Source: Macrostomum lignano (Eukaryota). Taken from it: a DNA stretch of 52,747 nucleotides. Each line of letters opens with the position of its first letter. Within the stretch, counting starts at the first letter, position 1. The stretch spans positions 1 to 52,747 of the forward strand of contig NIVC01004261.1 in the NCBI GenBank assembly GCA_002269645.1, in the 5' to 3' direction. The notes beneath the pieces were generated by a model. It was not told the DNA's origin, made no database searches, and worked only from the letters and a program-made list of their open reading frames with translations. Position numbers and translations under genes: made by a program. Positions 14,036 through 30,149 of this stretch are shown here, piece by piece.

Positions 14036-14421
14036 TTAATTCGTGCACCCATTGACAACGAAAAACAGGTGTACAGGTATAGTTGAAAAAGTATTTGACC
14101 TCTACGTGAGTTTTATATTAATATAAATAATCAGCTGATTCTGATAAAAAAATTTAATAGCAAGTGTTTTAATTTTAATTAAAAGTCTGGAATGTTTTAT
14201 TAATTGTAAAATTCTTTATATTTACAAAGATTTCACGAAAAATGAAAAATACCTCAGAAACCTTTGTTTTACTGTACACAAAATTTACAGATAATCAATA
14301 TTGCCTAATTAATAACTATCATATGCCAAATCAATATTGGATTACAACTCGGGGAATCTTTCCTTCCTCCTTTAATTCAAAATTTATCCTTGTGATTAAG
14401 CAGTTTGCTTTCACATCCTTG

Positions 14422-15115
14422 AGTAGAAGGCATGAGGGGGCTTCTGGGACAAAATTTTTCACGTCCTCCATAATCCACCTAAATCCATCCATATTATCCC
14501 TGACAGAATCAGAAAAAAAGGGGGGTCGCACTCGCTCACAAAACGTCCTCCATAATCCCATTAAATCCATCCATATTATCCCCGACAGAATCATGAAAAA
14601 GTGGAGGGGTCGCACTTGCTCCGAAAACTTCGAACATAATCGTATTAAATCCATCCATATTATCCCTGACAGAATCAGTGCATAACAGGTGTCCACTAAC
14701 ACCTGTTATGCTCATTGACACTGACATAATCCACTAACATCCACCCAGAAACAATCAGAAAATAATCTGCATTCTCCCCACATTCAATCCGAAGCGGCGA
14801 AACCAGATCCCAAAGACTTTAAACCCCCTAACCCAGGGTCCTTACCCTTTGAAAAAAAATTAAATTCTTAATAAAAAAATGTTTCCAGTTGTCTCTCCAG
14901 GTTCCTATTATACTCATCCATTGTACAAATCCAAGTACCGATGCAAACTAGAATGCAGCGAATACATGAAAAAATATTGGCCCGACGTTCATATCAATGT
15001 CCCTAATATTAATCTAGCTCTCCAAAGACACTGGTTTCATAAGTATGGAGTAACCTATGTAAAAGATTACGACAGCTACTATAACTTTGCAGAAATCATT
15101 AAGCAATTGCGTTAA
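14422..15115 (+). repeat. Left terminal inverted repeat (outer ~290 bp near-identical to right TIR; diverged homology to ~690 bp)
   Basis: Manual comparison with reverse complement of 29027-29718: first ~90 bp identical, few differences to ~14712, more divergent inward through the 78-aa ORF. Confidence 0.92.
14879..15115 (+). CDS. 78-aa TIR-embedded protein of unknown function (left copy)
   Basis: ATG in AAAAAAATG context; paralogue in the right TIR keeps frame with synonymous and conservative changes. Confidence 0.75.
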   Translation: MFPVVSPGSYYTHPLYKSKYRCKLECSEYMKKYWPDVHINVPNINLALQRHWFHKYGVTYVKDYDSYYNFAEIIKQLR

Positions 15116-15749
15116 AAAACTGAAAGGCCAAAATCGTTTTCATTTTGGCCTCGCGCGAGGCCGAAATCCTTTGCATTCTGGCCTTCACTCGAGACGGAAT
15201 TCTTCCCCGGCTGGGCTCAGTTAAAGTGAAAATCTCTCTCCCCCCCCCCACGCGCGCTCTCTCTACCCCCAGCTCTTTCAGCAGTCTTCCCAATTTCTTG
15301 TTAGGAGCACACAAAATAAACCCTGCTTCCAAGCCTCCGCCCTCTCTTTCCGCACACCCGCCCTCTCTCCCCAAACACCCACCTTCGCCTTGAACCCCCA
15401 AACCCAACTTTGCCTTACTAAAAATAACAGCTTTAACTAGCTTCCGAGCAATCGACTCACGAAATCCGCTTGAAGCCCCTATATTGTCTAGTCTCTTAAG
15501 CATTTCTTTGTCCCAGCGATTCTTCTCCTCAGGAAAATCTCTATATTTAACATCGTGCCACATGCAGACAGAGTCTAGCTCGTTCACAGGCTCATGCCCA
15601 GGATGTGGATTATTGTTTTTATCTAACTGTATTTCAAGTGGATTCAAAGGCCCGCAATATTTATAGCCGGGAAGTGTCCAGCCTTTGTTTGGATGAGGAA
15701 GCTTTTCTATCAGTCCATGTGAATCTAACTTACCACCAGAGCGTTGCAT
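15099..15749 (-). CDS. Parvovirus VP1u-type phospholipase A2 domain protein
   Basis: LPGYKYCGPLN Ca-binding-loop motif and EPVNELDSVCMWHDVKY (H-D-x-x-Y catalytic motif) match parvoviral/adintoviral PLA2; the C-terminal half may be mis-framed. Confidence 0.85.
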   Translation of the reverse strand: MQRSGGKLDSHGLIEKLPHPNKGWTLPGYKYCGPLNPLEIQLDKNNNPHPGHEPVNELDSVCMWHDVKYRDFPEEKNRWDKEMLKRLDNIGASSGFRESIARKLVKAVIFSKAKLGLGVQGEGGCLGREGGCAEREGGGLEAGFILCAPNKKLGRLLKELGVERARVGGGREIFTLTEPSRGRIPSRVKARMQRISASREAKMKTILAFQFFNAIA

Positions 15750-15779
15750 TATTTTATTTTAAATTTTCTTTTTAAAAAA

Positions 15780-16787
15780 ATGACAGATCAGAAACTTAAA
15801 AAACTCTACTACAGCGACAAAGGATTCTTTGTAGGAAAAAATGCAGTCACCAAACTCGCAGAACTAAGTAAGGAACCAAAAGCTAAAGTAGAAAAGTGGC
15901 TCTCTAAGCAGGCTGTCTTTCAAGTCTATTTCCCACCAGTAAAATTTACAAGACCTCACTTTAGCATCTATAAACCTAATGAAGCGCACCAAGCAGATCT
16001 TTTGTTTCTCCCCAACGACTCAGGCTACAAGTATGCTCTTACAATTATTGACATTGCTTCCAGATATAAGGAAGCTCGCCCACTCAAGACGAAGAAGTCA
16101 GAAGCAGTTGCAGCCGCCCTCCAAGATATTTATAAAAACTCACCCCTTAGCTACCCTGAATCCTTTATGACTGATCCTGGCAAAGAATTCATGGGTGCAG
16201 TGAAATCACTTCTACATAAGCATGACACAGAGATTCGCTATGGCAGAACAAACTTGCACAGAGACCAAGCGTACGTTGAGAGATTCAATCTAACTCTAGC
16301 CAAGAGGCTATTCACTAAGCAGACAGCTGAAGAGCTGAAACTAAAAAGTGGCCAATACTATACCAAGTGGACAGACCGGCTCCCCACTGTTATAGAGCAA
16401 CTGAACAATGAAGTCACACGCATGACTGGATTGAAACCATCCCATGCAATTAAACAAGACACTGTCGAACTTAAGTCATCTCTTAGAACAGACACCTCGA
16501 ACTACCCTAAGCTTCCAGGAGTTGAATCACCATACATACTGACAAACTCTGAGTTTCTACGCTTTTTATATCTACATGGAGAGCTAGAGAAAGACACCAA
16601 AAGAAGAGCTACAGATCCATACTTCAGCCTTGATGTACATAAAATAGACAGACATTTTACCTCCGACTCCGGTGACTATTACTTTTTATCTCAGGCCTTT
16701 AACCCTAAATCCCCCACACGGTCATTCACTAGAGCTGAACTCCTAGTATACCAGCTGACACGGAAATTAATTAAAATATTAAAATAA
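15780..16787 (+). CDS. Retroviral-type (rve) DDE integrase
   Basis: HQAD, IIDIASRY, MTDPGKEF and YVERFN motifs (D-D-E intact); start MTDQKLKKLYYS. A -1 shift near 16748 would give the family-like ending ELLVIPADTEIN* (stop 16774). Confidence 0.95.
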   Translation: MTDQKLKKLYYSDKGFFVGKNAVTKLAELSKEPKAKVEKWLSKQAVFQVYFPPVKFTRPHFSIYKPNEAHQADLLFLPNDSGYKYALTIIDIASRYKEARPLKTKKSEAVAAALQDIYKNSPLSYPESFMTDPGKEFMGAVKSLLHKHDTEIRYGRTNLHRDQAYVERFNLTLAKRLFTKQTAEELKLKSGQYYTKWTDRLPTVIEQLNNEVTRMTGLKPSHAIKQDTVELKSSLRTDTSNYPKLPGVESPYILTNSEFLRFLYLHGELEKDTKRRATDPYFSLDVHKIDRHFTSDSGDYYFLSQAFNPKSPTRSFTRAELLVYQLTRKLIKILK

Positions 16788-16790
16788 AAA

Positions 16791-28201: not shown

Positions 28202-28464
28202 TGTTAAAATTACTAAATATTTTATTTCAGTTTTATTTTGAATTTTGAGTATATTTTTTCTAGTCATATTACTTATTAGTAGGCAACCTCACGCTTTTTG
28301 GACTGACCAAGCATTATTTTTTTCTAACCAGTATTTAGTGAAAGGATTGAAAACACAAAAGAAATCGGACACAAAAAGATAGTCTGTGCTCAGTCTATTG
28401 TTTTATTATGCCAAAAGTTGGTTAACTTCGCAAGTATTCGCACATAAAAAACACAAGTCTGTCA

Positions 28465-29020
28465 TTAGTCTTTCTCAGAAAAAAAGCTTTTTTTGCACAG
28501 TTGAATTCGTGCGAATTCCTGTTAAGACAGGAAATGGCGCGAATCCAACTGCGCACTAGTCTTTCTCAGAAAAATGCTATTTTGCACAGTTGAATTCGTG
28601 CGAATTCCTGTTATGCACATGATTTTTACGAACGTTCGTAAAAATCATGTAACCACTGAGAGCCGCTTTATGCTGCACATGATTTTTACGAACGTTCGTG
28701 AAAATCATGTAACCAGTGGGAATCGAACCATGCGGGGCAGACTGAGACCGGTTTTGGGCTTTTTTGCCCTCGTCAGTCAGTCATAGCCACACGAGGTCGG
28801 CTCCACCTCTAGCCAGCTGAGTGGAACTGCTATTTATACGCCCTTGCACATGGCGACATTTTCTAGTCCACCATGTGAGGAATTCGCGCCATGTTCAAAT
28901 AGCTTTACTATCAGTAAGCTATCGCTTACAAATACGAGCCGCTTTATGCTGCACATGATTTTGTCAGTATTTTTTAGATCTTGCGTCTGCACTCTACAGG
29001 GTACAACCTTGTAGTGTAGT
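28465..29020. promoter_or_regulatory. Non-coding repeat/palindrome cluster inside the right end of the Polinton
   Basis: Perfect 34-bp palindrome 28617-28650, second copy 28677-28710 (1 mismatch), duplicated ~57-bp block containing GAATTCGTGCGAATTC (28503, 28592). Function inferred only. Confidence 0.55.
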
Positions 29021-29026
29021 TGGCTA

Positions 29027-29263
29027 CTATAACTGCCTTATAACTTCAGCAAAGTTATAATAGCTGTCAAAATTGTTAATGACTACTCCGTGTTTTTCAA
29101 ACCAGTGAGATTTAAGTGCTTGATTAATATTAGGGACATTGATATCAACGTCGGGCCAATATTTTCTCATGTATTCGCTGCATTCTAGTTTGCATTGGTA
29201 CTTGCTCTTGTAATTAGGCTCGTGCGCTTTGTAATAAGAACCTGGAGAGATAACTGGAAACAT
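29027..29263 (-). CDS. 78-aa TIR-embedded protein of unknown function (right copy)
   Basis: About 58/78 residues identical to 14879..15115 by manual alignment. Confidence 0.75.
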   Translation of the reverse strand: MFPVISPGSYYKAHEPNYKSKYQCKLECSEYMRKYWPDVDINVPNINQALKSHWFEKHGVVINNFDSYYNFAEVIRQL

Positions 29264-29718
29264 TTTTAGAGAAAATTTAATTTTTTTTCAAAGGGTGAGG
29301 ACCCTGGGTTAGGGGATTTAAAGTTTTAGGGATCTGGTTTCAACGCTTCGGATTGAATGTGGGGAGAAGAATGCAGATTATTTTCCGATTGTTTCGAAGA
29401 TGCTATGGGTGGATGTTGGTGTCAATGAACATAACAGGTGTTAGTGGACACTGTTATGCACTGATTCTGTCAGGGATAATATGGATGGATTTAATACGAT
29501 TATGTTCGAAGTTTTCGGAGCAAGTGCGACCCCTCCCTTTTTTTATGATTCTGTCGGGGATAATATGGATGGATTTAATGGGATTATGGAGGACGTTTTG
29601 TGAGCGAGTGCGACCCCCCTTTTTTTTCTGATTCTGTCAGGGATAATATGGATGGATTTAGGTGGATTATGGAGGACGTGAAAAATTTTGTCCCAGAAGC
29701 CCCCTCATGCCTTCTACT
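29027..29718 (-). repeat. Right terminal inverted repeat
   Basis: Reverse complement of 14422-15115; ends in CTACT followed by TSD TCCTTG. Confidence 0.92.
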
Positions 29719-30149
29719 TCCTTGCCTAAGCTGTCAGCTTAGAATTTAGTTATTGAGCCATAACATTTTCAATATGAAACTTTATTTCGTATATGATACA
29801 TTTGACTGGAATTTACTGTATGTAATTGAAAAAAAAATGTTTTTATAACAAGAGCTGCCAGTTCGCTTTATATTGCTTCAAGTTTTATAATACAGATAAT
29901 TATAAATATTCGCAAGGTTTGCTAGCACTCTGCAATTGTTAAGCTGTGATACTTACGGTCTGATATCGTTAGACAACCAACAGAGAGTGAATTATTTTAT
30001 TCCGCCGTGCACGCTAAGCACATACAAGCGTGCAGATAATGTAGGCAGGCACGCACACATACACGCACTTTATTGGGTGTACAGTGGCCCAGATTTTTTG
30101 AGTCGGATATGTACAAACTGACTGTCTATGGCCCTCATTTATGACGAAT

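Follow-up and report, generated by a model that had tools for sequence, protein, structure and literature searches.

Polintons, also called Mavericks (Polintoviricetes), combine a 6-bp target-site duplication (TSD) with a core of replication and morphogenesis genes. The Alpha adintoviruses encode a PolB of the OTU-pfam03175 class and typically have a PLA2X protein in their virion module (Starrett et al. 2021, PMC8502044); Fig. S2 of that paper shows the Corynactis coral adintovirus in its Alpha panel. Flatworms are known to harbor such elements, since a count of pPolB1 gave 748 copies, spread over 8 of 73 genomes of Platyhelminthes (Jeong et al. 2023, PMC10748475). In this study we analyzed contig NIVC01004261.1 of the Macrostomum lignano assembly GCA_002269645.1, the whole 52,747 nucleotides of which we refer to as the window, and describe a 15,297-bp element at positions 14422-29718 that, judged by its sequence, is a full-length and divergent Polinton of the Alpha-adintovirus type. 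As written, the element contains 13–14 frameshifts in 12.8 kb of coding sequence, and we think it probable that most of these are errors in the consensus sequence and that the locus in the worm is wholly or almost wholly intact.

Like the Alpha adintoviruses (PMC8502044; e.g. Corynactis coral adintovirus, P0023), the element encodes a PF03175-class PolB, an rve integrase, an FtsK/A32 ATPase, an adenain, a double-jelly-roll (DJR) capsid protein and a parvovirus-type phospholipase A2 (PLA2), and has inverted terminal repeats. It also shares with them an animal host, which to judge from the DNA is the flatworm M. lignano; an exon in the flank of the element shows 100% identity to an exportin-T record from Macrostomum lignano. 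It differs from them in that PLA2 and pX, which they carry together on one PLA2X with pX at the C terminus, appear here on separate genes (the 3′ end of the PLA2 gene being uncertain), and in that several of its genes are broken as written. When compared to intact Mavericks, its length of 15.3 kb lies within their range of 12.7–24.6 kb and its repeats of 690 bp within theirs of 46–1,447 bp (PMC8097293). Vertebrate Mavericks end in (AGT)2, (AG)3 or (AC)3A (PMC8097293), whereas the end motif here is AGTAGA, the five leading bases of which are as in (AGT)2 and the sixth of which differs. The two-module gene order of the vertebrate elements differs too, pPolB lying here on the strand of the integrase, protease and capsid genes. 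Barreat and Katzourakis 2021 (PMC8097293) reserve the term intact for elements with uninterrupted core open reading frames (ORFs); three of those of the present copy (pPolB, capsid and probable penton) are interrupted as written, which may be sequence error. With the flatworm Polintons of PMC10748475, to which it was compared by description, the element shares its phylum and an integrase-linked pPolB.

The TCCTTG duplication that flanks the element cannot be extended to 7 bp, and the chance of finding the same hexamer at a fixed place is ~1.4e-4. Inside it lie terminal inverted repeats (TIRs) with tips that are identical for 98 bp. A sequence-only reading of this DNA had claimed a perfect 6-bp TSD and ~90 bp of identical TIR tips; both claims held, and the whole repeats proved to be longer than claimed, at ~690 bp. 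The repeats match at 619 of 699 columns and fall into two zones. There are 4 substitutions and 2 indels in the outer 300 columns, the first 174 of which have no substitution and a single indel, and this zone of the left repeat includes an 84-bp unit present 2.6 times (14461-14678). By comparison, the inner ~400 columns contain 53 substitutions and 13 indel events, such that the arms are ~85% identical there. The duplication and the near-unchanged outer arms support the view, also taken in the sequence-only reading, that the insertion is young. Neither a second copy nor a solo repeat was found elsewhere in the window by blastn.

Each repeat carries an ORF of 78 codons, a gene pair that the first reading had overlooked. 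The two predicted proteins agree at 57 of 79 columns (72% identity), both frames are open, and over 76 aligned codons pS was 0.35 and pN 0.16 (dN/dS 0.37, Fisher p 0.004), which is a signature of purifying selection. This signature suggests that selection was acting on the inner arms while they diverged, earlier than the present insertion, and for that reason we rejected dating of the insertion from whole-repeat divergence. The inner-arm divergence could represent either old paralogs or recombination between sister elements, and the outer ~300 bp are presumably kept alike through pairing of the ends during replication. Pfam and NCBIfam scans, with no dedicated homolog search made, assigned no family to the repeat ORFs. 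(An RNase T2 match of the right-repeat ORF, with E 0.003 and thus below cut-off, was not seen for the left copy and was rejected as chance.) Our literature search on genes inside Polinton repeats found nothing directly on point, which is weak evidence of absence.

The Pfam scan, which took in 26 pieces, placed six pieces of the element above curated cut-offs, in the families rve, DNA_pol_B_2, Peptidase_C5, Pox_A32, Phospholip_A2_4 and Adeno_PX. The integrase aligns with its relatives over its full length, the closest being 64% identical (329 aa). The protein-primed PolB (pPolB) consists of an N-terminal region, vOTU-type motifs (OTU-type Cys and His motifs were both located), an exonuclease with an endonuclease-VII-like insert, and the polymerase. 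For its largest piece, 5738 of 8000 scored candidates passed E 1e-30, with named matches from corals, anemones and molluscs; identity to the PolB of the Corynactis coral adintovirus is 37% (E 7e-108). When compared to 120 relatives pPolB is no more than 45% identical to any, and it forms a long branch in a tree that places it in no supported clade (44 of 119 eligible relatives, a quick method and no Beta outgroup). (The endonuclease-VII-like segment, at ~19010-19140 on the plus strand, matches PF02945 with E 1.5e-4, below cut-off, and is listed for many relatives as well.) His, Asp and Cys motifs are present in the protease, which also matches adenovirus proteinase (E 0.002), and Walker A and Walker B are present in the packaging ATPase. 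The motifs in pPolB and the other catalytic proteins were labeled after the usual motifs of these families. Intact catalytic motifs had been claimed for integrase, pPolB, protease and ATPase; the motifs are indeed present, although those of pPolB are distributed across all three reading frames.

The capsid piece had 10 relatives with 41–77% identity among 6456 candidates of 224–716 residues, and PF21738 was found in 10 of the 10. A structural model built on those relatives (pLDDT 55.7) had DJR capsids as its top fold match in all three libraries searched, the best match being VIA (Z 11.3, rmsd 7.2, 297 aligned). The fold searches and the PF21738-bearing relatives support the earlier assignment of a major capsid protein. 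The penton assignment fared less well: position, size and a weak lead (the nearest named Atlas cluster, Sputnik V18/19, at 0.90, with recognition below threshold) point to a penton, but the attempt at a fold gave no support, in that a single-sequence model with pLDDT 32.8 had no Foldseek match at E<=0.001, a result that is uninformative at such a pLDDT. Taken together, the TSD, the TIRs, the gene set and the relatives of pPolB bear out the identification of the element as a Polinton of adintovirus type. It had also been proposed that the element came from an undersampled invertebrate lineage; the host is an invertebrate, but Polintons have already been recorded in number from flatworms, and the present element is a new divergent one.

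The sequence-only reading had described the element as complete and had overlooked its reading-frame breaks, which hit pPolB, the capsid and penton genes and three other genes. Breaks in pPolB lie near 17448, 18218, 18358, 18453, 18706, 18768 and 20318, with one or two at 20968-21003 (8–9 in all). Frameshift-aware alignment of pPolB to a profile made from 60 of 75 full-length relatives gave 8 shifts at penalties of 10 and 14 and 7 at a penalty of 20, and the aligned path was free of stops. The same kind of alignment, in agreement with tblastn, placed 1 shift in the capsid gene near 26090, again on a stop-free path. A codon model placed one further shift each in the 5′ end of pPolB, the pX-like gene, the penton gene and two unnamed genes, and found no in-frame stop in the remaining genes once start offsets had been corrected. 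(A possible break near 22598 is excluded from the count of 13–14.) The frames of the integrase, protease, ATPase, PLA2 domain, 129-aa ORF and both repeat ORFs are open.

The lack of any nonsense codon, the mostly one-way direction of the shifts and the presence of a frameshift in a host gene on the same contig together make sequence error somewhat likelier than decay. Neutral decay would give 1.0, 2.5 and 5.1 stops at 2, 5 and 10 substitutions per frameshift, respectively, and 0 were observed, for which the probabilities are 0.36, 0.08 and 0.006 (the ratios being assumed). The same direction was seen in 12 of 14 tallied shifts (p 0.013). The host gene for exportin-T is frameshifted near 40490 within an otherwise canonically spliced model, and the stretch that is missing fits a gap in its matches to the Pfam profile (105-175) and to PDB chain 3ibv_A (422-495). 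(A short intron at this break was rejected, as none fits by eye.) Conserved sites in two of the proteins show no excess of change. In particular, the capsid protein departs from its 4 closest relatives at 17 of 239 columns conserved in them, each of these relatives departing more from the others (7.9–11.8%); with 7 relatives it violates 5 of 112 conserved columns, which is mid-range; and the integrase violates 0 of 24. Error is also favored by the lack of substitutions (with 1 indel) in the first 174 repeat columns and by a mild clustering of the breaks, 5 of which lie within 600 bp (P 0.03 versus uniform; P 0.14 at 1000 bp).

Several points weigh against sequence error. Counting the final two pPolB breaks as a single one (penalty 20) leaves 10 of 13 shifts in one direction (p ~0.09 by hand), and genuine indels in animals are often biased toward one direction. 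Moreover, pPolB violates 45 of 247 conserved columns, which is above all 75 relatives (maximum 11.6%). Note that this last comparison is confounded because pPolB is a long branch, an outgroup to its relatives with a mean identity to them of 38% compared to a median of 54% among the relatives themselves; note too that conserved-site tests have little power at such a level of decay. A homopolymer run of at least 4 lies within 6 nt of only 1 of the 14 breaks, against a background of 18%. Host coding sequence has 1 break in ~6.0 kb and the element 14 in 12.8 kb, a roughly sixfold difference (P 0.025), although polishing is prone to fail in repeats and host genes are under the protection of selection. 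Finally, exportin-T may be represented here by a dead duplicate, and the downstream piece of its broken exon has no match of its own.

The strongest alternative, possible though the less probable, is that the Polinton is truly dead, a young fossil with pPolB, capsid and penton genes frameshifted after insertion, and one that could be moved, if at all, only with the proteins of another copy. The 13–14 breaks are what such a fossil would show, as are their sixfold density relative to host genes on the contig, the lack of homopolymer bias and the 4 substitutions within the outer repeat columns; among vertebrate Mavericks, degraded loci make up 96% (PMC8097293). The fossil reading sits less well with frames that shift mostly one way and hold no nonsense codon, with the unexceptional conserved sites of capsid and integrase, and with a housekeeping gene, exportin-T, that is similarly broken on the same contig. 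A much less likely alternative is that the interior is a blend of related copies that were collapsed or mis-joined in assembly, a blend that would account for the breaks as well as for the inner arms being 15% divergent. The clustering of the breaks, such as it is, and the far greater divergence of the inner than of the outer arms fit this idea, but the matching 6-bp duplication (chance 1.4e-4) ties both ends to one insertion, and purifying selection on the inner arms, with both ORFs open (dN/dS 0.37), argues that their divergence is old and biological. It is scarcely credible that the frame changes serve a function, as introns or as programmed frameshifting, and that the element is expressed just as its sequence stands, for although the genes continue in another frame with homology kept, the pPolB and capsid of relatives are single proteins colinear across the breaks, there is no room for introns, and we know of no precedent for 8–9 recoding events in one polymerase. 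Intact Mavericks are, in addition, intronless (PMC8097293).

Table 1 Features of the Polinton in contig NIVC01004261.1 of Macrostomum lignano, in order of position.
Feature	Coordinates	Strand	Match or basis
Left target-site duplication, TCCTTG	14416-14421	.	
Left terminal inverted repeat, ~690 bp, starts AGTAG	14422-15108	+	
78-codon ORF in left repeat, inward-facing, paralog of right-repeat ORF	14879-15115	+	
Parvovirus-type phospholipase A2 protein, PLA2 domain open, true 3′ end uncertain	15099-15749	-	PF08398 E 1.1e-13
Retrovirus-like DDE integrase, open, 335 aa	15780-16787	+	PF00665, 39 bits vs cut-off 32.6
Small protein with adenovirus pX (mu core)-like segment; break near 16858	16791-17248	+	PF05829 E 4e-7
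Protein-primed PolB, broken	17372-21204	+	PF03175 43.3 bits vs cut-off 25.8 (largest piece)
Adenain-type maturation protease, open, 132 aa	21298-21696	+	PF00770 21.8 bits vs cut-off 21.3
Unnamed gene with hydrophobic segments; break near 22123	21700-22441	-	
Coiled-coil protein with internal 84-bp duplication; possible break near 22598	22398-23351	-	
A32/FtsK-type packaging ATPase, open, 266 aa	23368-24168	-	PF04665 E 3.3e-6, 27.2 bits vs cut-off 22.8
21-bp unit x7 between ATPase and adjoining gene	24208-24355	.	
129-aa ORF, open, three G-x-G sites	24382-24771	-	
Unnamed Q/P-rich gene; break near 25499	24788-26001	-	
Double-jelly-roll major capsid gene; break near 26090	26032-27317	+	DJR-like PF21738 E 1.4e-4, below cut-off
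Probable penton (minor capsid protein); break near 27709	27339-28201	+	Position, size
Non-coding stretch between penton and right repeat	28440-28962	.	
78-codon ORF in right repeat, inward-facing	29027-29263	-	
Right terminal inverted repeat	29031-29718	-	
Right target-site duplication, TCCTTG	29719-29724	.	

Most genes of the element (Table 1) begin after an A/T-rich tract that ends in a run of A ahead of the ATG. The PLA2 protein has catalytic-type motifs and a weak match to parvoviral VP1; Pfam detected no pX domain on this gene, the 3′ end of which is uncertain. The G-x-G sites of the 129-aa ORF may be protease cleavage sites. The Q/P-rich gene may, by resemblance, be PZ-like, and this gene and the one with hydrophobic segments, for which Pfam and NCBIfam gave no family above cut-off, are candidates for PZ/PW (PM). 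For the coiled-coil ORF there was no usable Atlas match, and a fibre-like role for its product is our guess. NCBIfam, run on 11 pieces, gave only sub-cut-off coiled-coil or chance matches. The non-coding stretch next to the right repeat contains direct repeats of 44–48 bp and two near-palindromes of 34 bp, and is possibly a regulatory region.

The element lies ~380 bp (measured from the left duplication) upstream of the first ATG of an OTUD5-like deubiquitinase gene at 7643-14035 (-), which has five exons, GT-AG splicing and an open frame of 684 codons; the Polinton could affect the promoter of this gene. On the other side lie a single-exon gene for a DnaJ-domain protein with a Q/H-rich tail (32554-33282, -) and the exportin-T gene (~35530-44135, -), for which the public protein (P0131, 519 aa) begins only after the break near 40490. 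Between the Polinton and the DnaJ-domain gene, at 31848-32456 (+), is what may, by resemblance, be a degraded fragment of a mariner-like transposase. Within 46576-50518, minus-strand open stretches (48407-48841 and 50123-50518) resemble exons of a membrane protein gene. Most host introns in the window are filled with minisatellites of 17–63 bp, and one minisatellite of 28 bp occurs at both 9856-10493 and 46859-47350, 36 kb apart.

We found no report of a Polinton or Maverick from Macrostomum in the literature searched, though supplements that were not seen and repeat databases (Repbase, Dfam) could hold one. By word search, Macrostomum is absent from the available text of the PMC8502044 supplement and of 10.64898/2026.10.13.758929, and Polinton and Maverick are absent from that of PMC12801592. 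The supplementary tables of PMC10748475, as far as they were available, give accessions and name Macrostomum nowhere. The filter used in that study needed a pPolB ORF of at least 900 aa, which the present copy would fail; more generally, ORF-length filters miss elements such as this frameshifted Polinton.

By analogy with related elements, the integrase would join AG-tipped linear ends to host DNA, giving the 6-bp duplication. The polymerase would prime on its own terminal-protein domain, which would be freed by the vOTU domain, and would copy the linear genome; a terminal-protein domain is part of pPolB, as is a vOTU protease for which a role in releasing that domain has been proposed (PMC11161782). 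Assembly, filling and maturation of an icosahedral particle would fall to the capsid, penton, ATPase and protease, and PLA2 and the pX-like protein would serve in entry and core packing, PLA2 being thought to disrupt membranes during entry (PMC8502044). The sequence-only reading had considered the element possibly still mobile or infectious. The sequence does not bear this out: the copy as written could supply integrase, protease and ATPase, and could make neither a polymerase nor a major capsid protein nor a penton.

Animal Polintons are predicted to form virions; as of 2021 no particles had been observed (PMC8097293), a study from 2024 argues for particles from expression only (PMC11131425), and we found no imaged animal Polinton virion in the titles and abstract openings of the literature searched. 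If the breaks are real, the present copy is one more young fossil among thousands. Its proximity to an intact OTUD5-like gene makes an effect on a host gene testable, and, should accurate sequence show this young copy or a sister of it to be intact, particle formation could conveniently be tested in a model flatworm that is kept in culture. A bolder proposal, which we consider unlikely, is that M. lignano carries an intact and active Polinton of a deep, unnamed capsid lineage, with a selected pair of repeat genes, and that cultures of the worm shed its particles; if this were true, the virion of an animal Polinton could be observed directly in a laboratory worm.

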